IMG/VR virus record: IMGVR_UViG_3300032259_000016
Coordinates: 1-28,965 of that record
Source of the DNA: a virus
Taxonomy: Duplodnaviria > Caudoviricetes
Strand: one strand, 5' to 3'
DNA: 28,965 nt
Position numbers and translations under genes: made by a program. The stretch's first letter is position 1, and each line of letters begins with the position of its first letter. The notes below the pieces were generated by a model. That model did no database searches and was not told the origin of the DNA. It was given only the letters and a program-made list of their open reading frames with translations. Positions 3,890-13,534 of this stretch are shown in pieces.

Positions 3890-4123
3890 TCACCTCTTAT
3901 AACAATATCGATCTTGGTTATAAAGTGCTGCGGCTCCACAACACTTCTTGGCCTTCTTGCCGCTCCCACAAAGGCAAGGGTCATTTCTGCCCACTTTCCC
4001 AAGCGTTGTCCTTGTCCCATTTCGCATCCAGAATTGTTCCGGCCAATATGCTATGACCATGACTGGAAGAATTAGAATCAGGAAGAAGAGAAAGGCTATT
4101 ATCAGGGCAATGAATTCGGTCAT
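3890..4123 (-). CDS. Small membrane-anchored SEC-C motif protein
   Basis: Hydrophobic N-terminal segment followed by [21 protein letters not shown]. Confidence 0.8.
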
Positions 4124-4124
4124 T

Positions 4125-4610
4125 TTAGTCCTTCTTAGCCGTTAACAATTCAGCAACCTTGTCATCTTTCAGCATCCCAAGCTCTGCCATTTTCTGCACA
4201 ACAGAAGAGGCGTACATGAAGTCATATTGTTTTTTAATTTCATCAATATGCTTTTTGGCATAAGCTTGAAGCTGCTTTTTAGGGGAGTCCCAAAGTTTGC
4301 TATTGCGGTGCTCTATCTGCTGTATTATCCACTCCTTTACAGTCACCGCTGACTCAGAGTTTGAAGATGGTCTTACTTTTCCACTGGCGACAACCTCCCT
4401 TGTTATCATGGCTACCTCAGTCCCAAGGTTTTGCTTGAATTGTGCTGAAACTTCTTCCTTGACCGTTATTTCAATAATATCCTTGAGTTCGGCTCTAAGC
4501 TGATGAAGAACGGCATGTTTGATGCTATTCCTTAAGCTATCGCTCAGACTATCGCCACTATCTGACCAGACATCTTCTAGGTCAATTGTCACTGTTAATT
4601 TATTTTTCAT
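4125..4610 (-). CDS. Hypothetical phage protein (helical)
   Basis: 161-aa ORF with AGGAGG Shine-Dalgarno, tightly packed with the next gene. Confidence 0.75.
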
Positions 4611-4632
4611 TTACTTCCTCCTGATATCTCTT

Positions 4633-4665
4633 AAAAAGCCCCTGCCCCTCGGTAGAAGGGCAGGG
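4633..4665 (-). terminator. Rho-independent terminator
   Basis: Minus strand CCCTGCCCTTC-TACC-GAGGGGCAGGG (11-bp stem, one G-U) followed by GCTTTTT. Confidence 0.8.
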
Positions 4666-4685
4666 TATGGATGGACTAAAATTGA

Positions 4686-4831
4686 TGCGGACAACAGGAC
4701 TCGAACCTGCAATTTCAGGGGCTGATCAACACCCTAGTATCAGATATCATCAATGACCGCTAAGTCACTGCTTCTTCTCCAATACAACCGGATTAGCATT
4801 CCGGTGCGTCTACCAGTTCCGCCACGTCCGC
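4686..4831 (-). tRNA. Atypical tRNA-like RNA: Leu-type body, GCT (Ser) anticodon, 77-nt structured variable region
   Basis: Acceptor GCGGACG/TGTCCGC+A; D arm TGGCGGAACTGGTAGACGC; anticodon arm CCGGA-ATGCTAA-TCCGG; T arm GCAGG-TTCGAGT-CCTGT; followed by TCA rather than CCA. Confidence 0.8.
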
Positions 4832-4835
4832 TTAC

Positions 4836-5816
4836 TTAAAATTCTACATCTGCATCAAAAGGACATGCCTTACCTGTTCGGACACAAACGCCCTGATCAC
4901 CATCTTTTGCCAGGTCTTCACAACCGTCCGATTTAAACGGACAGTTATCAGGCAAGGAATATTCTTCCGTCATTTTAGTTTTGAGCTTCCCGTAAGATGC
5001 TCTTGCCCATTTTACTGACGTTTTTGAAGTCAGATTTGACAGCCACTTTTCATCACCCTCTTTTCCGAATATGGAGATTTCCTTTAATGTCTCAGTCCAT
5101 ACAGCTTTATCACCAGCACTGTAAACATCTAAAAGAAAGTTCAACTTCTCTACGACATCCCCGTCATCTTTGCCGCTGATCGTTTTTGCCTGCTCCTTCA
5201 GCTTTGAAGCTGTCTTTTTTTCATCTTTGGTGGGTTCTGGTTCATTTGCAGGCTTTACGGTAGAGGCTTTACTTTCAGGGGTAATATCAACAGGGTTATT
5301 AGATTGAAACTCTTCAGCAACATACATATTCCCCACATCTTCAGGAAAAGCCTCTCTTAGTGCCTGGACAAGAGCAACCTTTTTGAGCATTGTCTTCTTC
5401 TTTTTCTGCCACATATCAGTAATGGTGCCGTTCTGCTTTTTCCCAACATACTCATCAAGGTCAACTTCAACCGTGACAGGAACTACATGCCCCTCCACAT
5501 AGACCTTTGCCCATGCAGATTGACCATCATCAGCCATCCCCACTTCATGCCCCTGATATTTTGGGTTCCTTGCCGCCCTCTTCATGAAGACTTTTTTAGC
5601 CGTTACCATCGTAGCCGGGGCAGTACCAAACTTGATAAGGTACACATCCTTTAAGAAAGGATTAAGCTGCTCGAATTTACACAAAGACAGAAACATTTGT
5701 ACTTCCTGATCTGTTACCTTGTCGGCGTCGCCACTGACAAGATATTGCTTGATAATCTTGTCTGACAGTTCGATATTCTGACCGCCTGATACATACTTAG
5801 TTAATTGATTATTCAC
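4836..5816 (-). CDS. bet: Phage single-strand annealing recombinase, Bet/RecT family
   Basis: VTDQEVQMFLSLCKFEQLNPFLKDVYLIKFG and W...KTMLKKVALVQALREAFP...MY..EE; GTG start with AGGAGG. Confidence 0.88.
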   Translation of the reverse strand: MNNQLTKYVSGGQNIELSDKIIKQYLVSGDADKVTDQEVQMFLSLCKFEQLNPFLKDVYLIKFGTAPATMVTAKKVFMKRAARNPKYQGHEVGMADDGQSAWAKVYVEGHVVPVTVEVDLDEYVGKKQNGTITDMWQKKKKTMLKKVALVQALREAFPEDVGNMYVAEEFQSNNPVDITPESKASTVKPANEPEPTKDEKKTASKLKEQAKTISGKDDGDVVEKLNFLLDVYSAGDKAVWTETLKEISIFGKEGDEKWLSNLTSKTSVKWARASYGKLKTKMTEEYSLPDNCPFKSDGCEDLAKDGDQGVCVRTGKACPFDADVEF

Positions 5817-5828
5817 TTTCTACCTCCT

Positions 5829-6527
5829 CTATTCTTCAACGTCAAAACTATCTGCCTGTGGGCAACCATCACTATGAACGCCTTGCTCAGGACTTCCGCA
5901 GTCCTGACACTCGTACATCTCCCCTGCCTCTACGGGATTATCAGGAGCCTCTACGACTCCATTCTTCATAAGATCTTCTAATATTCTTGAAGCCCTGTTG
6001 TACCCGATCTTAAGTTTTTTCTGGAGAAAGGAGATAGTGATAAAGATAGTCTTGTCCTGTTCGACTAAAGTAACTGCTTCACTATAAAGCATATCTCCCT
6101 GTCCATCATGCTCTGCGCTCTCTTCAGTGGACTCCTTGAGAGGTTCGGTATCAGCCTTCTTCTCCTTTTTCTTTCTAAGCTTTAGATGCTGCTGCTTTTC
6201 AAACTCCTCTATTTCAACTATCTTAACGAGGGTCTGAGTGTCAGAGCGAAACAGAGTTTTCTCGTTGTTCTCCCAATCGTAGTGCCACCAGCATTCAACC
6301 TGGCGCATCTCCTGCCCTGTAGACACTTTCTGGCTCAATGCAGATATGTTTGACTCATGGACATTGATTTGCGCCGTGTACTCAGACATAGCCTGTTTTT
6401 TACTTAATTCACTCTGGGTCTTGCTCTGGTGTTCTCCTGCCAACCTTCGGGAATAGTCAAGGGTTTCTTCCTCTGTCAGCTTACAAGACAGTTCCCTTTC
6501 TTCCCTCTTTATGTCATCTGATTCCAT
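5829..6527 (-). CDS. Phage protein with coiled-coil N-terminus, FtsK gamma (winged-helix) domain and C-terminal Cys/His finger
   Basis: DMLYSEAVTLV...ISFLQKKLKIGYNRASRILEDLMKNGVV is the FtsK-gamma signature; YECQDCG...HSDGC near the end. Confidence 0.8.
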   Translation of the reverse strand: MESDDIKREERELSCKLTEEETLDYSRRLAGEHQSKTQSELSKKQAMSEYTAQINVHESNISALSQKVSTGQEMRQVECWWHYDWENNEKTLFRSDTQTLVKIVEIEEFEKQQHLKLRKKKEKKADTEPLKESTEESAEHDGQGDMLYSEAVTLVEQDKTIFITISFLQKKLKIGYNRASRILEDLMKNGVVEAPDNPVEAGEMYECQDCGSPEQGVHSDGCPQADSFDVEE

Positions 6528-6551
6528 TCTCTTTCCTCTCTATGTTATTTT

Positions 6552-7289
6552 TTAATCTTTTAATTCCTCTTTATATCTATTTAGATACTCCCCAAAACCC
6601 CTCTCTGATAGTAATTTCAATATTCTCAAAACCGTCTTTTTAGGATATTTAACTATGTCATTCCAACAAGGCCGATGAACTGAAAATTTACCAATAAGTT
6701 CCCATTCAGTTTTCTTAAATACCTCATTTTCCTCTCTGCGGATTAGCTCAATAAATAGATCATGGCAATACCCATCTGTATAGTTTTTTGCACCGCGAAG
6801 GTTTGCATCGCCAAGGTCTGCACCGCCAAGGTCTGCACCGCTAAGGTTTGCACCGCTAAGGTTTGCACCGCTAAGGTTTGCACCGCGAAGGTTTGCACCG
6901 CCAAGGTCTGCACCGCCAAGGTCTGCACCGCGAAGGTTTGCACCGCGAAGGTTTGCACCGCCAAGGTCTGCACCGCTAAGGTCTGCATCGCCAAGGTCTG
7001 CACCGCCAAGGTCTGCACCGCCAAGGTCTGCACCGCCAAGGTTTGCACCGCCAAGGTCTGCACCGCCAAGGTTTGCACCGCCAAGGTTTGCACCGCGAAG
7101 GTTTGCATCGCCAAGGTCTGCACCGCCAAGGTCTGCATCGCCAAGGTCTGCACCGCTAAGGTTTGCACCGCTAAGGTTTGCACCGCTAAGGTTTGCAGCA
7201 ATAACCACATCTTTTAGAGCTGCTCCCTTGCCTTTATGAATAGCTTTACCTGTATGCCTATGTTTTATTTCAAACTCAATAAGTTTCAC
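6552..7289 (-). CDS. Pentapeptide repeat protein
   Basis: 27 A(N/D)L(S/G/R)(G/D) repeats between unique N- and C-terminal domains. Confidence 0.92.
6792..7196. repeat. 15-bp coding tandem repeat, 27 units
   Basis: Minus-strand unit GCA-RAC-CTT-NGC-GRT repeated over 405 bp. Confidence 0.95.
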
Positions 7290-7467
7290 CCTTAACCTCC
7301 TTCTCAGCTCTCTCCCTTACAATCTCAACACCAACACCCTTGACGCTTGGATGTTCCGGGTGCATACAAAAACCGCCCTCAGAATGTGGACAATCCTCAC
7401 AGACTGCAATATCCCCAGGACATACATCATCTATAAACTTACCAAGCTTTTTCGTGAAATCACTCAT
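7276..7467 (-). CDS. Small Cys-rich hypothetical protein
   Basis: 63 aa, CEDCPH...FCMHP; GGAGG Shine-Dalgarno upstream. Confidence 0.7.
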
Positions 7468-7479
7468 TCCTTACCTCCC

Positions 7480-7659
7480 TCAAATACTTTCAACGTGCAA
7501 AGCTTTTGCCAGCAACGGCAGTTCTTCCGGCCTGATCTTTACTTTCCCTCTTTCGATACGAGAAAGCCTTATTTCCTGAATACCTGTCTTCGCCGCTAAC
7601 CAATGTTGAGTCATGCCAAGCTTTCGCCTGTGCTTCACTATTCTTTCACCTATCTTCAT
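7480..7659 (-). CDS. XRE-family helix-turn-helix regulator (Cro-like)
   Basis: IGERIVKHRRKLGMTQHWLAAKTGIQEIRLSRIERG; first gene after the leftward promoter; AAGGAGG before ATG 7659. Confidence 0.9.
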   Translation of the reverse strand: MKIGERIVKHRRKLGMTQHWLAAKTGIQEIRLSRIERGKVKIRPEELPLLAKALHVESI

Positions 7660-7686
7660 TTCTCCTCCTTTCTGATTCATGGTGAA

Positions 7687-7715
7687 AGCATAGCCTGTGC
7701 GGTTTTCCCTGTCAA
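7687..7715 (-). promoter_or_regulatory. Leftward sigma70-type promoter
   Basis: TTGACA (7715-7710), 17-nt spacer, TATGCT (7692-7687). Confidence 0.8.
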
Positions 7716-7722
7716 GCCCTTA

Positions 7723-7753
7723 TTTCACTTTTCTTTCACTTTTCTTTCACTTT
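7723..7753. repeat. Three direct repeats TTTCACTTT with 11-bp period (candidate operator array)
   Basis: Copies at 7723, 7734 and 7745 between the two -35 boxes; inverted AAGTGAAA at 7794. Confidence 0.7.
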
Positions 7754-7758
7754 ATGTC

Positions 7759-7787
7759 TTGACAGGGTTTGAGGGGCTTGGTATTAT
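7759..7787 (+). promoter_or_regulatory. Rightward sigma70-type promoter with extended -10
   Basis: TTGACA (7759-7764), 17-nt spacer ending TGG, TATTAT (7782-7787). Confidence 0.82.
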
Positions 7788-7817
7788 GGGGGCAAGTGAA
7801 AATTAAAGGGAGGGTAC

Positions 7818-8027
7818 ATGAAAAACAAATTACACATAGCATTGAGCCCTCTAACAAATACTATTTTTGCCGGGAAAATATTGAAAAAAGGCATATGGGC
7901 TGCGGGGAAACAAGATGTGACAATGGATGCGCTTATTTCTGTTGCAGAACATGTGAAGGCTTTTGGAAAACCTGTTGAAATTACAGATAGTGAAGGCAAG
8001 TTAATTTATAAAATTATAGTAGAGTAA
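7818..8027 (+). CDS. Small phage hypothetical protein
   Basis: GGGAGGG Shine-Dalgarno; SPLTNTIFAG...W...KQDVT...VAEH pattern recalled from phage early proteins. Confidence 0.8.
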   Translation: MKNKLHIALSPLTNTIFAGKILKKGIWAAGKQDVTMDALISVAEHVKAFGKPVEITDSEGKLIYKIIVE

Positions 8028-8030
8028 TGC

Positions 8031-8309
8031 ACTTAATCACCAGCGTTAGTATAGATGGTATTAATAATTAAGGAGAAGACGACATGGAACATAACCCAGA
8101 GCGTGAAATCAAAGAAATGGACGAAAAAATTGATGAGCTACATAGCGTAGTAAGTGATCTTGGTGGCGCAGTTAAGTCTGAGTTTATTGAAAAGATAGAG
8201 GCTGTCATTGAAGAATGGACTGACTACACCAAAAAATGTATTGAGGGGCTGGTTGAAGCCCTAGAGAATGCAACTGATGACGCCTAACGACTTAATCACC
8301 AGCGTTAGT
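8031..8309 (+). repeat. Identical 20-bp direct repeat ACTTAATCACCAGCGTTAGT at 8031-8050 and 8290-8309
   Basis: Each copy begins 2-3 nt after the stop codon of a small gene. Confidence 0.9.
8084..8287 (+). CDS. Small acidic helical hypothetical protein
   Basis: AAGGAG Shine-Dalgarno; 67 aa, strongly D/E-rich. Confidence 0.75.
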   Translation: MEHNPEREIKEMDEKIDELHSVVSDLGGAVKSEFIEKIEAVIEEWTDYTKKCIEGLVEALENATDDA

Positions 8310-8318
8310 CTGGTTGAT

Positions 8319-8571
8319 GTTATCGAAAATATCAAAGGGAGGGTTATGTTGGAATATTTAGGAATAGCCACTAAGCTTAGTTCTTATGCTGAAAGGCACT
8401 TAGACGGGGAGGACAAAGAAGCTCTAAATTACTATATCCCATGCAAGGCTTACCTTACTGAAGAAAAGGCCGAAATTGACGGAAGCTTTTTGGTTGCTCT
8501 GGAGGGGATGGGAAGCAGGGACGGACTTGTTCATTTAGATATGTTAGTTATCGAAAATATTAAGGGGAGGG
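8319..8571 (+). repeat. 25-bp near-identical repeat GTTATCGAAAATATYAARGGGAGGG at 8319-8343 and 8547-8571
   Basis: Both copies contain the ribosome binding site of the next gene; partial third copy at about 7798-7814. Confidence 0.85.
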
Positions 8572-8576
8572 AATAA
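8346..8576 (+). CDS. Small hypothetical protein (MLEYLGIATK...)
   Basis: ATG 8346 follows GGGAGGG; preferred over the longer start at 8268, which overlaps the previous gene. Confidence 0.65.
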   Translation: MLEYLGIATKLSSYAERHLDGEDKEALNYYIPCKAYLTEEKAEIDGSFLVALEGMGSRDGLVHLDMLVIENIKGRE

Positions 8577-8755
8577 TGCTCAGGGAATTCATGATATATG
8601 CAAGAGGTCTCGGTGATTGGCCTCAAGATATATTTAAAGATGTTGCCTGTAACAAGTATAGGGGTAGTGGGCGAAAAGGCAACGGGCGCAAGAAAAAGAA
8701 GAATATGAATCGTGTAAGCAGATCGACAAAAAGAAAGCACAATAGAAGAGCTTAG
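8576..8755 (+). CDS. 59-aa highly basic protein (not in the ORF track)
   Basis: Read manually: MLREFMIYARGLGDWPQDIFKDVACNKYRGSGRKGNGRKKKKNMNRVSRSTKRKHNRRA; TAATG overlap and GGGAGGG Shine-Dalgarno. Confidence 0.65.
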   Translation: MLREFMIYARGLGDWPQDIFKDVACNKYRGSGRKGNGRKKKKNMNRVSRSTKRKHNRRA

Positions 8756-8825
8756 GTGGTTGAAATAATACAAGCAGCAAATCAATTAACGTGGCCGGGT
8801 GCATTTGCCCTATGATGTAGGACTT

Positions 8826-9146
8826 CTATTCCTCTTTTTTCAGCGTTTCAATCATGCTCTTTAGCTGACTAAACTGCTGCCTTGATAGCTTTGGCTCCCC
8901 TTCTGCCTCATGTTCTATCTCGCTTTCTTTTAGTATATTGTCAAGCTCGGCACCCCTGTTTTTAAGCCTTCGCCCTTTGATGTTTACCCATATCAATATC
9001 AAGGCTGAAACCGTTGTTGCAATGGCCAGAATGTCGGGCAACCATCCCATCACTGCCGTTACTCCTGAAGCAAGAGAATAGAGATATAGTAATCCTTGGT
9101 TTGACTGTCCTATGTGCTGCCCTGCTGCGGCAATAGTCTCTTTCAT
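8826..9146 (-). CDS. Small membrane protein, possible holin
   Basis: One to two hydrophobic segments then a charged tail; last gene of the structural operon; GGAGG and ATGA overlap. Confidence 0.55.
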   Translation of the reverse strand: MKETIAAAGQHIGQSNQGLLYLYSLASGVTAVMGWLPDILAIATTVSALILIWVNIKGRRLKNRGAELDNILKESEIEHEAEGEPKLSRQQFSQLKSMIETLKKEE

Positions 9147-12100
9147 TTTACCTCTCCAGACTTTAGTTTATTCAAATGATAGAAGAACATTTTACCTTTA
9201 AAGCCAGGAACTTTATCCCTCATTTTTTCCAGTTCCTTACGCTCTTTAGTGTCTGACAATTTCCACCTACCCCAATATATTTGCGCTCTGGCTTTAGGGG
9301 AAGAATAGAGAAGGTCAACCCAAAACTTACGCTCTGGGATATCCTTGAGACGTTCATGTGTCATAAACCGCCTCATGAGCCTTCTTCTCTCAATCGGAGG
9401 TTGTGTCAAGACATACTTCTTTACGTCCTTCTTGCTCACATCTCCATCAAAGTACTTCTGGGTGTAATTATCAAAGTCCCTTGTTACTATGTGCCTCTCG
9501 GTTCTTGCCTCAACGTCAGCTTTTTCAATATCCTTGCCATACTTATAGTAAGGATCTGTGCTTCTTACTATTTTCCTGATAAAAGGCTTTTTAAGTATGA
9601 CCTCTTCCGTTACGAGATTCTTGTCTTTATCGTCAAGCCCTTTAAGCACAGCTTGCGTTCCACCACCAACAAGGGACGTCCATATGTTCCCGTATGTAAA
9701 GTACTGCTGTAGGGCGCTTTTGAGCCTTACAGGTGACATTCCGGTTGCCTTGCCTGCCTTCTTGAACGCTTCTGGTGTATATTTGGTATATTCTTCTTCC
9801 GGCTTAACCTTTGGACCTCTCCAGATATCCTCATTAAACCAGAAATCCTTATTTGCAGAATAGCCAAGAATTGCCTCAACCGTGGGAGGTAAATTTGTTG
9901 GAGAAAAGGGAATGAAGTCTTTTGCTGCCATAGTGACCTGATCTGCATTGACCTCATCACCTATGGATTTGGCTGCTGCTGCTTCTGCTATTGAAGCAAA
10001 TACCCTTTGTCCCTGATCCTTGGCAATCTTGAAGTAGATGTGTCTTTTAGTTCCGGTCTTATCAAGGTAGCTGTATGGAGTTGTGATTATCCAGTTGTTT
10101 GTTTTGTCCCTGTCTGGAATTTCATCCCAAGCATCAGGATTAAGCAGGCTGTTTGCAAGGTAAAGCATAGTAGCAATGCCGCCAACTTGAACAACCTTGG
10201 CAGTTAATAACTTTGGATTGGTAATTCCTGCCCTGGCAATACCTCTTGTAGCCTGTATTCCGGCATTAAGATATGGCAATGCTGAATCAGCCGCCTTTGC
10301 AAGATTGCCGCCCTGAGTAAAGTCAAGATAGTTTCTTGCAATAATTGTTGCCTGTTCAGGTGTAGCACCATTTTTAATGGCTCTTCTTCTCAATGCAAGG
10401 CGTGTCATGATCTCGGAAGTGGTTCCCGTGTAGCCCATTACGGACTGTATCTGTCCTGCTTTTCCTTTTAATTTTGAAGTGAGGCGACCTTGTAGAGTCA
10501 TCCATTCCATGCCTCCACCTTCGTTTATGTAATCGTCATAAGGGCCTTCTCTATTAAATGTTGCTTCTAGTACGGCCTTTAAGTCGCCCCCCGCAAGTAC
10601 ACTTTGAACGCCCTTAGCGGGATGCACTCCGGTAGCAGATGGTAATATTTGAGCCATATCTATTGCCATTTGCCCTATTGCTTTAGGAAGGTAAGGACTA
10701 TATTCTTCGGTTGACATCCATATGAGGGCAATGTCTCTGGGGATATTCGTGAAAGCAAATTCAGGATTCAATCCGGTTGCCATCGGCTTTAATATCTTGG
10801 TTCCCGATAACCACTGGATTGCTTGCGCCTGAGACTGTAATAAAATAGGATCTTTAAATATCCACTCACTAGCAAACTCTTCAGGCATTATCAGTTCTTT
10901 ATGCTTGCCATCGACCATAACGCTGATCTTTGCCCATCCACGAGGGGCAGTCTGGAAAACTGGCTTACCGTCTTTTGTGGTCTTAATTATCTTGGCTTTT
11001 CTCACCATCCCGTTATCAGGTTGGTTTTCAGCCAAATCCCATAGTGCCTGATTTGCTCTATTTTTAAATATCCTTGATTGAGTCCGGTTAATAACCTGGC
11101 TAAGAAGAAGAGAACTATCGCTCTCAACAAGCTTTTCAGTACCTTCCTCGGAAAGCTTCTTTATTCCACTGTCCGGGACCGTTATTGTTTTCCCACCTTC
11201 AAAAGCTGTTGTCATGGGGTCAATATAGTCGAGAACAACACGAGGGGAGTAATAGCGCCCTACCTTCCTGAGTCCTGCCAGTTGTTTATCTGTCAGAAGC
11301 CCATTGTCCTTAAGTTCCTGAAGCTGTTCATCCATTGTTTTCCAATAGACTTCAGCTCTCTTTTTTATCTCTGTAATTGTTTCAGAAGGTATGGCGTCAA
11401 TAAGGGCTTGCATATCGGCCTTAGTCGCACCTCCAGGCATTTTAAAGTCCGGCTTATATGAAGCTATTTCGATATGTCTCTTTGCATAAATATACTGGTC
11501 AAGGTAATCATGTTGTGCCTCTGTGAGCTTCCCATAGATTTCTTTTTCTATTTTATCGGTCATCCTTAGAGCTTTTGAATGAGCGCCGCCATGAGCAATG
11601 TGACGCATAACCGCCTTTTTACCTTCGGGGCCAAGCTTATTAAGAGCGCTTTTTACATTCCCGGATACATCGACAAGGGAAGTCTTAAGCCCCCTGAAGG
11701 TCTGCTTGAGTGTTCGCTTCTTTTTTTCCAAAGAAGTTTCTCTTGCTTCCTTCAGGTCATCATATACCTTGCCTGCCCTGCCTTCTGGACGGGGAGCACG
11801 AGAGAAAAGAGGAGCTTCGTCTACTTTCTCTGTTGGAGTGGATTTAACAGCCTTCCTTTTTTTAGCTACTTTCTTCCCTTCTCCTTCTTTGACAAACTTA
11901 ACCGCATCAGCAATCATATTCTTAACATCATTATCGGAAAGCTTAACATTGAGACCCATCTTCTTGAGCCACTTCCTGATTACTGCAATAACCTTCTGAA
12001 TGAGGGTAGGGTCTGTGCCATTCTGTGCCATCCGTGCAAGAACTTCCTCCGCTGCTTCCTGTTTACCCTGTGCTGTCTTCGTATCAATGCCGTACTCTTC

Positions 12101-13534
12101 TGCAATGGCGTCAGCTTCTTTCCTATACTTCCGGTATGCCTCATTAAGTACAGGCTTGATCTCGCTTCCAAGTGTTCCGCTCAGCCCGTAATGCCCCAAA
12201 GTCTCATGAAAGACAACATCAACTATCTTTTCAGTAGAGGAAATATTATCAGCTATCAGATAAACCGATTGGCTTTTTGGGTCAAAGAGTCCTTCTACTT
12301 TGCCCTCTCCTTTTGATGCAGCGATATATTTACCCAAGTGAGGGGGTAGCTCATCAATATTCTGAACCGTCTTTATTTCAGGTTTATTTGTCCATTTATT
12401 TGTGACGATATCCGCAAAGGATTGAACGTCATCAATGGAAAATTTTTCGGCTTCCGGGGCTTGAGCTTCTTTGAATATTGAACCTACTTCCAAGGGTTTT
12501 TTCTTTTCTCCTTTCTGCGCTTTGGTATAAAGGAGACGGGGGGAAGAATCGCCATCACCTGTAGGGGTCCGTCCTTCATATTCAACTGTCCTTGGCTCAA
12601 CAACAAGTTCTGCTTCGGGTAGTTCTTCGCCAAACTCCGTTGCCAGCTCATCCAGTGTTGGGGCTTCATCAGCGGGGAGAGTGTCTACAGCATCAGGCGC
12701 TACCTCTGCTCCCTCGTAAGGGTCTATGATCTCCTGTTGTGGGGCTGGCGTAGGTTCTGGCTGGCTTTTTTCCTGAAGGGCATGAAGGGGCTGCACAAGA
12801 GTAGTTGCACCAACCGTAGTCAATCCTGCCACTGCTGCGGTATCAATTAACGCTTGCCATAGTTGCTCGTCAGTGTACTTCTTTCCAAGTAACTGTTCAT
12901 CAATGCCCTTCATCTCTGTATAGGTAGCGAGTAATTCCCCCGGTATATCGGCAATAACGCCTTGGGCAAGTCTGGTAATGAACTTTTTCCCCGGCGCAAG
13001 CAATAGCCCTACCGGTATTTTTTCTGTAAGGTATTCGGTAGCTGCCTGTGCTCCTGCTGCCGTGACAGCCGTTCCCATGCTATACCCTTCGTCAAGAGCT
13101 TCTGCACCCTTTTCCGCTCCTGCACGGCCTGCAAGCAAAGCAAGGACAGCCTTGCCCCTACCTACCGCTCCAGTGGTTGCCATCTCTGCAATACTTCTCG
13201 TAGCCTGTCCTGCATACTGCTTACCTTTTGAGGATACTTTGGGTTCCCAATATTTTTCAGCAGGCTTGACATAATCTTTTCTGAAACCACTTTCAGGCAT
13301 ATCAAGGGCCTTCCTGATCATGTGTCCACCTTCAGATACAATTTTAGGAATTGCAAGAGCGCCCTGCATTGCCCCTTTGCCAATTACTTCAAGATAGGAA
13401 TCTTCTTCAGGAACCTCACCCTTAGACAACGAGGCATCAAAAGGATCTACGATACCCGATGATTCAAAGGGGTCTATTATCCCTCCTGCCCCTATCTGCG
13501 GTGGCTGCTTATCAAATGGGTCTACAATTGCCAT
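9143..13534 (-). CDS. Large internal virion/DNA ejection polyvalent protein with zincin-like metallopeptidase and LPD38-like C-terminal domain
   Basis: 1463 aa; GLFDP...VYLIADNI...FHETLGHYGL...AEEVLA; C-terminal WDEIPDRDKTNNWII...YFKIAK...NKDFW...SPVRL; position at the end of the ejection genes. Confidence 0.75.
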   Translation of the reverse strand: MAIVDPFDKQPPQIGAGGIIDPFESSGIVDPFDASLSKGEVPEEDSYLEVIGKGAMQGALAIPKIVSEGGHMIRKALDMPESGFRKDYVKPAEKYWEPKVSSKGKQYAGQATRSIAEMATTGAVGRGKAVLALLAGRAGAEKGAEALDEGYSMGTAVTAAGAQAATEYLTEKIPVGLLLAPGKKFITRLAQGVIADIPGELLATYTEMKGIDEQLLGKKYTDEQLWQALIDTAAVAGLTTVGATTLVQPLHALQEKSQPEPTPAPQQEIIDPYEGAEVAPDAVDTLPADEAPTLDELATEFGEELPEAELVVEPRTVEYEGRTPTGDGDSSPRLLYTKAQKGEKKKPLEVGSIFKEAQAPEAEKFSIDDVQSFADIVTNKWTNKPEIKTVQNIDELPPHLGKYIAASKGEGKVEGLFDPKSQSVYLIADNISSTEKIVDVVFHETLGHYGLSGTLGSEIKPVLNEAYRKYRKEADAIAEEYGIDTKTAQGKQEAAEEVLARMAQNGTDPTLIQKVIAVIRKWLKKMGLNVKLSDNDVKNMIADAVKFVKEGEGKKVAKKRKAVKSTPTEKVDEAPLFSRAPRPEGRAGKVYDDLKEARETSLEKKKRTLKQTFRGLKTSLVDVSGNVKSALNKLGPEGKKAVMRHIAHGGAHSKALRMTDKIEKEIYGKLTEAQHDYLDQYIYAKRHIEIASYKPDFKMPGGATKADMQALIDAIPSETITEIKKRAEVYWKTMDEQLQELKDNGLLTDKQLAGLRKVGRYYSPRVVLDYIDPMTTAFEGGKTITVPDSGIKKLSEEGTEKLVESDSSLLLSQVINRTQSRIFKNRANQALWDLAENQPDNGMVRKAKIIKTTKDGKPVFQTAPRGWAKISVMVDGKHKELIMPEEFASEWIFKDPILLQSQAQAIQWLSGTKILKPMATGLNPEFAFTNIPRDIALIWMSTEEYSPYLPKAIGQMAIDMAQILPSATGVHPAKGVQSVLAGGDLKAVLEATFNREGPYDDYINEGGGMEWMTLQGRLTSKLKGKAGQIQSVMGYTGTTSEIMTRLALRRRAIKNGATPEQATIIARNYLDFTQGGNLAKAADSALPYLNAGIQATRGIARAGITNPKLLTAKVVQVGGIATMLYLANSLLNPDAWDEIPDRDKTNNWIITTPYSYLDKTGTKRHIYFKIAKDQGQRVFASIAEAAAAKSIGDEVNADQVTMAAKDFIPFSPTNLPPTVEAILGYSANKDFWFNEDIWRGPKVKPEEEYTKYTPEAFKKAGKATGMSPVRLKSALQQYFTYGNIWTSLVGGGTQAVLKGLDDKDKNLVTEEVILKKPFIRKIVRSTDPYYKYGKDIEKADVEARTERHIVTRDFDNYTQKYFDGDVSKKDVKKYVLTQPPIERRRLMRRFMTHERLKDIPERKFWVDLLYSSPKARAQIYWGRWKLSDTKERKELEKMRDKVPGFKGKMFFYHLNKLKSGEVK

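Follow-up and report, generated by a model that had tools for sequence, protein, structure and literature searches.

Phages T4 and T5 encode RNAs that their annotations carry as "tRNA-like stable RNAs of unknown function." In T5, RNA1 and RNA2 (NC_005859, 30501-30644, 144 nt, and 32959-33083, 125 nt, both annotated "tRNA-like stable RNA with unknown functions") are oversized tRNA-shaped RNAs with D and T arms that sit in a tRNA cluster. RNA1 has a Leu-type D loop (GGAAUUGGUAGAC), a U before the T stem, an insertion in the anticodon arm, and a normal-sized variable arm; RNA2 has extra helices between the D and T arms. The stable T4 species 1 and 2 RNAs (rnaC and rnaD; 139 and 119 nt) also lie in a tRNA cluster, and rnaC ends in a T arm. 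A synthetic counterpart is the engineered V-Spinach tRNA, which, in the available text of Masuda et al. (PMC5397188), has a cognate anticodon, CCA, and a large self-folding domain in the class II variable loop; of the Spinach fusions tried, the V-loop one alone was stably expressed in Escherichia coli, and a ~100-nt aptamer in this loop lowered the kcat/Km of charging 2.7-fold and supported translation in E. coli. This activity is called marginal in the available part of Mukai 2020 (PMC7590224). Finally, the allo-tRNAs, as far as the available text of Mukai et al. 2017 (PMC5389517) describes them, combine a long V arm and an anticodon mismatched to identity with 8/4 or 9/3 branches, a tRNA-Sec-like D arm with a long stem and a tetraloop, and G73/U73 Ser identity; they have a mobile-element context, and missense or non-coding roles were proposed for them.

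Here, we analyze a tRNA-shaped phage gene in which frame, anticodon, and cargo are separable, so that its role, and with it the question raised by the T4 and T5 annotations, is directly testable. What is new is an arm-kept subtype, in which the anticodon arm is retained while the variable slot holds a long cargo, of 77 nt in the gene analyzed here. More broadly, hundreds of phages appear to carry Leu-frame tRNA-like RNAs, which are missed by ARAGORN. Our literature search, with subscription journals and the older T4/T5 work mostly outside its scope, found no paper on such RNAs; the supplements of PMC5389517 may list irregular phage tRNAs.

The window, that is, the whole stretch of DNA analyzed, is a whole virus contig of 28,965 bases. 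The element and its parts are as follows.

4686..4831, minus strand: tRNA-shaped gene of 146 nt with a Leu-type frame; G1 is 4831 and the discriminator A73 is 4686
4825..4831, minus strand: 5' strand of the acceptor stem, GCGGACG, with the pairs G1-C72, C2-G71, and G3-C70
4806..4822, minus strand: D arm, with A14, A15 (4817), G18G19 (4814-4813), and A20a (4811)
4788..4804, minus strand: anticodon arm CCGGA-AUGCUAA-UCCGG, with the anticodon GCU at 4797-4795 and A32 at 4799
4737..4785, minus strand: predicted hairpin V1, with an 8-bp stem, an internal loop, a further 8-bp stem, and a UAGC loop
4716..4736, minus strand: predicted hairpin V2, with a 0-nt junction to V1
4711..4715, minus strand: AAAUU linker, whose last base is U48, the partner of A15
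4694..4710, minus strand: T arm GCAGG-UUCGAGU-CCUGU, with U54, U55, C56, and A58
4686..4693, minus strand: 3' strand of the acceptor stem, UGUCCGC, followed by A73

The sequence-only reading had proposed that all four arms pair and that a structured 77-nt variable region with two hairpins separates the anticodon and T arms. All four arms are indeed present at 4831-4686 on the minus strand: the acceptor stem (GCGGACG/TGTCCGC) has 7 bp, including one G-U; the D stem has 3 bp and the D loop is GAACUGGUAGA; the anticodon stem (CCGGA/TCCGG) has five Watson-Crick pairs and a 7-nt loop, AUGCUAA; and the T arm pairs. The variable region, at 4787-4711 on the minus strand, has the size given to it, and both hairpins appear in the minimum free energy (MFE) fold, with a 7x6, purine-rich internal loop (GAAGAAG/AUGAUA) in V1. 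For the whole element, the MFE structure is the cloverleaf plus the two hairpins (−53.6 kcal/mol, z −2.82), and 1 of 200 shuffles folded as well; for the 77-nt insert folded alone, the values are −23.9 kcal/mol and z −3.11, a stability that 2 of 200 shuffles reached. Mean pair probabilities are high in V1 (0.99/0.98), the acceptor stem (0.93), and the anticodon stem (0.95), lower in V2 (0.82/0.72), and weak in the two-dimensional ensemble for the D stem (0.37) and the T stem (0.46). V1 and V2 may stack coaxially. The insert contains six G-U pairs and folds 12.7 kcal/mol better on the strand of the element than on the opposite strand (−23.9 versus −11.2), which supports the earlier proposal that the G-U pairs favor folding as an RNA on this strand.

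The expectation that scanners may miss the element was borne out for ARAGORN, which called no gene in the window, and not for Rfam, in which model RF00005 matched it with 45.4 bits (E 8.3e-07). With the variable region cut to 4-25 nt in silico, ARAGORN called tRNA-Ser(gct) in 341 of 341 cases. The variable region was also thought to exceed the class II size; this holds against the tRNAs parsed here, as the longest variable region among 173 Leu, Ser, and Tyr tRNAs was 22 nt. The element does not encode CCA (positions 73-76 are AUCA) and is, by Rfam and ARAGORN, the sole tRNA-like gene in the contig. It recurs without differences in a contig of a sediment metagenome run (X1), which is possibly the source of the window and not independent of it.

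To judge from its sequence, body and anticodon of the element disagree: the frame is of the Leu type, and the anticodon is the Ser anticodon GCU instead of a Leu anticodon with A35. The E. coli LeuRS determinants given in the available text of Giege and Eriani (PMC9976931) are all in the element (A73, A15-U48, G18G19, A20a, G18:U55, G19-C56, and U54:A58), as is C2-G71, an antideterminant for E. coli SerRS; according to the same text, E. coli LeuRS still charges variants lacking the anticodon arm and the variable arm. In a naive Bayes comparison of shell positions, the element scored −33.7 log2 units as Leu, −68.5 as Ser, and −70.4 as Tyr. The training set of the classifier comprised 136 Leu, 28 Ser, and 9 Tyr tRNAs in the fetched loci, of which 170 of 173 were assigned correctly when left out one at a time; the Leu margin of ~35 log2 units is inflated because these loci were fetched with a Leu-type D-loop pattern. 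A73 is the commonest discriminator among tRNAs generally.

Like class II tRNA-Leu, the element has a 7/5 acceptor-T branch, G1-C72, C2-G71, A15-U48, A20a, and A73. In contrast to tRNA-Leu, in which the anticodon is NAG/YAA and the variable region at most 20 nt (136 parsed), it has GCU, A32, and a 77-nt variable region with two helices and a 5-nt linker. The marks of tRNA-Ser (G73, G2-C71, and a single short variable helix) are replaced by A73, C2-G71, and the two-helix region; among the Ser tRNAs parsed, G73 was present in 22 of 28 and G2-C71 in 24 of 28. The anticodon arm resembles that of a tRNA-Ser: it shares CCGGA-N-UGCUAA-UCCGG with tRNA-Ser(GCU) of Cronobacter phage CR3, which has C32, G73, an encoded CCA, and a 15-nt variable arm, and its loop differs from the phage tRNA-Ser(GCU) loop at position 32 alone. 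A32 departs from the rule of pyrimidine 32, U33, and purine 37, and it occurs in 3 of 436 ordinary tRNAs parsed, the A32/A38 combination in none of 436. As U33 and A37 are kept and position 32 is the sole difference, the loop is nearer to a decodable one than those of most relatives with a long variable region, which are described below. Two phage tRNA-Asn(GUU) genes (L129:395-483 and L136:385-470) among the fetched loci have a class II variable arm and G73.

Several known identities were considered and rejected. With the allo-tRNAs, the element has in common a long V arm, an anticodon that does not fit its identity, and a mobile-element context; however, its branch is 7/5, its D stem has 3 bp below a Leu-type loop, and position 73 is A. 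tmRNAs are marked by the G3-U70 Ala identity pair, the lack of a D stem, and a tag reading frame; the element has G3-C70 and a D stem, the insert holds no tag-like frame, and ARAGORN reported no tmRNA. The catalytic core of a group I intron comprises some 200 nt or more; the insert has just 77 nt and no Rfam match. An attP site or mobile-element remnant was dismissed, as there is neither an integrase among the 39 window proteins nor a flanking direct repeat.

By our best reading, the window RNA works like the T5 tRNA-like stable RNAs, with which it shares the oversized tRNA shape with D and T arms and, with RNA1, the Leu-type D loop and the U before the T stem. The layouts differ: the insertion of RNA1 is in the anticodon arm and its variable arm is of normal size, whereas in the window RNA the anticodon arm is canonical and the extra sequence, 77 nt, fills the variable slot; and the T5 RNAs are in a tRNA cluster, whereas the 29-kb contig has no tRNA-like gene besides this one. 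We found no sequence similarity between the inserts of T5 RNA1/RNA2 and that of the window. Unlike the window RNA, the folds of T4 rnaC and rnaD have no evident Leu-type D arm or anticodon arm, and unlike the V-Spinach tRNA of the available text of PMC5397188, the window gene is natural and its anticodon non-cognate. The T5 RNA1-like layout was also seen in L050:2993-3130 and in L107 (minus strand), which hold tRNA-Leu(UAA)-like genes with ~50 extra bases in the anticodon arm.

The frame is not confined to this phage and recurs in a large family of RNAs, most of them from phages. Scanning viral contigs with a pattern of a Leu-type D loop, 75-105 free bases, and a T loop listed 120 loci of an estimated ~370, with 98 distinct sequences, 80 of them frame-complete (acceptor with at least 6/7 pairs and T stem 5/5; 18, comprising tandem genes and broken frames, were dropped). 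The letters of the D loop and T loop were set by the patterns, which leaves A73, U48, and the stems as the only free tests. The acceptor, which the pattern left unconstrained, is paired in 81 of the 98 sequences among the matches listed, as opposed to a mean of 10.8 and a maximum of 21 with shuffled partners; and among the 80 frame-complete matches listed, U48 is present in 78, A73 in 67, and ACCA in 3. The middles are hypervariable and form 88 clusters among 111 elements, after a 28-member cluster of tandem-gene artefacts was removed from 139 elements. That cluster consists of loci in many metagenome and genome contigs (L167, L184, L189, L198, L209, and others) in which a tRNA-Leu 5' half, cut after the anticodon arm, lies directly upstream of a full tRNA-Leu; these half-gene loci were counted as false matches. 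Among the matches listed, 41 of the 55 family loci of at least 3 kb have no ordinary tRNA. A downstream terminator was detected in 0 of 45 family loci by a detector that does pick up that of the window.

The window element has the paired acceptor and T arms, the Leu-type D loop, U48, and A73 of this family, lacks an encoded CCA, and has a predicted long folded domain between the D and T arms. Its intact anticodon arm sets it apart, since an anticodon stem of 5/5 pairs in register is found in 0 of the 80 family frames among the matches listed. On these sequence traits, the element is a variant of the Leu-frame family, with the marks of frame and cargo and without the replacement of the anticodon arm; we file it as a variant rather than a typical member because one cargo lineage, that of L348 and L016 described below, varies in the arm trait. 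The outline of the family comes from our pattern scans, not from a published description.

A second pattern, in which the anticodon position had to read GA-N7-TC and the variable region to be long, matched 16 viral, 76 metagenome, and at least 120 genome loci, most of which are tandem genes; in a first version of an arm-plus-long-V pattern, all five matches were tandem-gene false positives. Removal of tandem genes, N-gapped records, and one likely duplication left 27 distinct frame-complete sequences, including the window. The arm-kept subtype is real: in 21 of these 27 among the matches listed, the three free positions of the anticodon stem are paired, compared with a shuffle mean of 4.4 and a maximum of 12. 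The window has the longest variable arm of these 21 arm-kept sequences among the matches listed. In the 11 members among the matches listed with a variable region of at least 45 nt (the window included), none has a Leu anticodon or CCA, the canonical Y32-U33-R37 loop is kept in two, and A73 is present in 10; in the 10 with less than 45 nt among the matches listed, eight encode CCA and seven have canonical loops (Fisher test for long versus short, CCA p 2e-4, loop p 0.03, with members that are not independent and include some near-identical pairs). Among the matches listed, the long-V relatives have no common anticodon, 5 of 11 have lost U33, and the anticodon loops of the arm-kept relatives all differ. 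In these sequences, longer arms go with the loss of CCA and of the loop consensus, which suggests a path from tRNA to cargo carrier.

Two pairs of sister sequences show compensatory changes. In L218 and L141, two-sided changes are found at 5 of 28 predicted pairs. L348, in which the anticodon arm is kept, and L016, in which it is replaced by a longer hairpin, have one common cargo, the 19-nt loop of which is identical in both; two-sided changes are found at 10 of 33 predicted pairs, three of them in the cargo stem. Both are two-sequence comparisons and do not bear on the window's own insert. In a third subfamily, of four close sequences, the cloverleaf is missing from the consensus fold (1 of 45 pairs). 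The string GUAAGUCC in the cargo of L016 and L348 is also found in L097 and in T5 RNA2. The conserved cargo loop UGAGAGUCCGGAUGCUAAA (L016:638-648, L348:332-342) contains CCGGAUGCUAA, which is one base short of CCGGAAUGCUAA in the window's anticodon arm (4793-4804); this may be chance. Of 445 loci, 5 contain the string CCGGA(N)UGCUAA (in the arms of two phage tRNA-Ser, in the window's record, and in the L016/L348 cargo loop), a count that was noticed post hoc, with about two chance matches expected in 2.2 Mb and all five in tRNA-like elements.

Relatives of the insert itself were sought in four ways. By blastn against cultured phages and plasmids, only D-arm and T-arm pieces or chance words were found; the internal-loop pattern matched three loci in viral contigs, and the one read (L362) is not a tRNA; in the 2.2 Mb of fetched loci, neither blastn nor nhmmer gave anything beyond E 0.11; and pairwise comparison with 139 family frames gave a score of at most 22. 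As no homologue of the insert was found, the structure of the window cargo has no covariation support. The insert also contains a string resembling box C/D (UUGAUGA-UAU-CUGA) and, ahead of a frame of two codons, an SD-like GGAG; either would have to displace the stem of 0.99 probability, and both were taken as chance.

The contig encodes a terminase, an SU10-type portal, a major capsid protein (N4-gp56 family in homologues), and a 1463-aa LPD38 polyvalent protein (window 9143-13534) that is located within the virion block. The element lies at the end of the recT gene run in a leftward gene block with an HTH regulator, RecT/Bet, and exonucleases, and its surroundings are as follows.

7687..7715, minus strand: sigma-70-like promoter TTGACA-17-TATGCT upstream of the HTH gene, with 10/12 consensus matches
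4836..5816, minus strand: gene for a RecT/Bet ssDNA-annealing protein (PF03837, E 3.2e-31), with the stop codon 4 nt before G1
4633..4665, minus strand: terminator-like hairpin of 11 bp, 8 of them G-C, and U run, 20 nt after A73
4125..4610, minus strand: downstream gene of 161 aa of no known family, with eight homologues at 49-67% identity

From this arrangement, the RNA is probably the 3'-terminal part of an early transcript, and its gene the last of a putative early operon led by the promoter near 7715. Promoter and terminator were recognized by consensus, and matches of either kind are no more frequent than the shuffle means; as 4000-9200 contains four terminator-like sites and shuffles of it 4.7 on average, the terminator match by itself is no proof. 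A pentapeptide-repeat protein (window 6552-7289) is encoded in the same putative operon. Among the ORFs listed, one alone overlaps the element; it encodes 68 aa, lies at 4519-4725 on the plus strand, and runs antisense to both the element and the gene that follows. A 10-nt inverted repeat (4858-4849/4691-4682) would allow the 3' end of recT to pair with the acceptor 3' strand and trailer, and a free recT tail drops the predicted pairing of the acceptor from 0.85 to 0.16-0.64. An equal drop was seen with 9, 3, and 34 of 100 shuffled leaders, so the native repeat disrupts the acceptor only slightly more than these do, and a folding switch coupled to translation is a weak lead only.

The capsid protein has homologues in one MAG of the Geobacteraceae (64%) and one of the Nitrospirae (55%), which hint at a host without assigning one. 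In 50 of 81 capsid- or recT-related virus records, which were scanned with RF00005, there was a match in one, of 73 nt and thus of tRNA size, and in none of six that are near-complete; the gene is not conserved among the phage's kin, although at about 40-64% capsid identity these are remote, and most are fragments. The synteny search with recT gave one viral relative (33%), the locus of which has no tRNA, and the downstream 161-aa gene had no relative among viral contigs and one distant cultured match.

We favor, at somewhat better than even confidence, the reading that the element is a non-decoding, likely leucylated tRNA scaffold that carries a folded cargo, because one frame recurs with unrelated middles in many phages and because the sister subfamilies show compensatory changes in both frame and cargo. 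Among the functions listed by the sequence-only reading, a tRNA-scaffolded ncRNA or stabilized carrier is thus the best supported, by the recurrence of the frame and the sister pairs; of its own insert, no homologue was found in which covariation could be sought. According to this model, transcription would start from the promoter near 7715, RNase P would cut the 5' end 4 nt past the recT stop, and the 3' end would be trimmed at A73 before CCA is added, with the elbow and the acceptor stem being what the host tRNA enzymes see. The host LeuRS would probably charge the RNA; the E. coli enzyme needs neither the anticodon arm nor the variable arm. In this way, the frame would get the RNA excised from the early phage transcript, matured, and protected, and the folded insert would be the working part, a cargo that binds a host factor, in an RNA that would not read codons. 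The Ser-like anticodon arm would be a structural filler of a slot that relatives appear to swap freely, and the variable loop a slot that may tolerate cargo, because among Spinach fusions the V-loop one alone was stably expressed (available text of PMC5397188). The weakest step is the target, and it is a guess that we hold as doubtful: the cargo might bind a host protein that the phage encounters soon after infection, either an RNA-binding or an anti-phage one.

An unlikely alternative to the scaffold is a missense tRNA, which would receive CCA, be charged with Leu by LeuRS, read Ser codons AGC/AGU, and thereby corrupt host proteins, with the giant arm tuning activity or stability. The complete 7/5/5 cloverleaf with U33 and A37 is what such a tRNA would need, the Leu body scores 35 log2 units above Ser (in a training set biased toward Leu), and V-Spinach tRNA-Tyr is charged and translates in E. 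coli (available text of PMC5397188). However, its activity is called marginal in the available part of PMC7590224, A32 is rare (3/436; A32/A38, 0/436), and the long-V relatives among the matches listed have neither a common anticodon nor, in 5 of 11, U33. Recoding of AGY to Leu in the phage was rejected, with 0 of 18 AGY positions aligning with a majority Leu in homologues of two proteins; the AGY codons of the phage are plain Ser, so that missense would hit its own proteins too (179 AGY codons in 23 ORFs). A specific form of this alternative, and quite an improbable one, is a natural "V-Spinach" tRNA, charged with Leu, which would enter ribosomes despite the 77-nt arm and place Leu at AGC/AGU, with the arm serving as a protein-binding switch. 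If true, the window RNA would mark the decoding end of a continuum from tRNA-Leu over long-arm missense tRNAs to anticodon-less cargo carriers.

Even less probable, in our view, is an anticodon-arm decoy, in which the GCU arm would bait a host anticodon nuclease or a tRNA-sensing defence aimed at tRNA-Ser(GCU) and the insert would bar entry into the ribosome. The arm equals that of phage tRNA-Ser(GCU) save position 32, its string is found in just 5 of 445 loci by the post hoc count, and the gene is in a putative early operon. However, about two of these matches are expected by chance in 2.2 Mb; among the matches listed, the loops of the arm-kept relatives all differ and most family members have no such arm, and our literature search found no paper on such decoys.

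We regard it as very unlikely that the element is a one-off pseudogene, that is, an initially normal phage tRNA now in decay after an insertion of 60 nt. The absence of an insert homologue and of a match in the capsid-related records, A32, and the lack of CCA would fit this; yet every stem is intact, the predicted helices have G-U pairs and zero A-C mismatch, the insert has z −3.1 and a strong strand bias, and the architecture recurs independently, with compensatory changes in sister pairs. Finally, the suggestion of the sequence-only reading that the insert is removed and the ends joined, giving a normal-size tRNA with anticodon GCU, is highly improbable: although any shortening is valid for ARAGORN (341/341), strict bulge-helix-bulge (BHB) motifs, which mark archaeal-type introns at their borders, number 0 and relaxed ones 5 (shuffle mean, 5.0), Rfam matches no intron or ribozyme, removal of V1 would leave a 21-nt hairpin and five unpaired bases unlike class II arms, an RNA ligase or splicing nuclease is absent among the 39 window proteins scanned, and the product would remain a Leu body with a Ser anticodon.

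Other unusual tRNAs were noticed among the fetched loci. In L176:1652-2595 (also L158 and L161), a gene for a 275-aa class II aminoacyl-tRNA synthetase catalytic domain (PF00152), which itself follows a ThyX gene, is succeeded after ~5 nt by a tRNA that has a GUU anticodon, G73-CCA, and a variable arm of 41 nt forming a single rod; the two may be a phage paralogue of a synthetase and the tRNA belonging to it. In L199:2484-2587, L228:2488-2593, and L244:1496-1612 (the type also in L174 and L220), there are tRNAs with a Leu body and arms of 33-46 nt. Their loops are one letter from Leu NAG anticodons (UGG, CGG, and AGG; Pro codons) and three of them adjoin an IS1595 transposase, which makes them candidate transposon-borne missense tRNAs. 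In L332 and L349, which are cellular (Gammaproteobacteria MAGs), Leu-body genes have the loop (C/U)UCGCAC, a 32-nt arm, and an encoded CCA.
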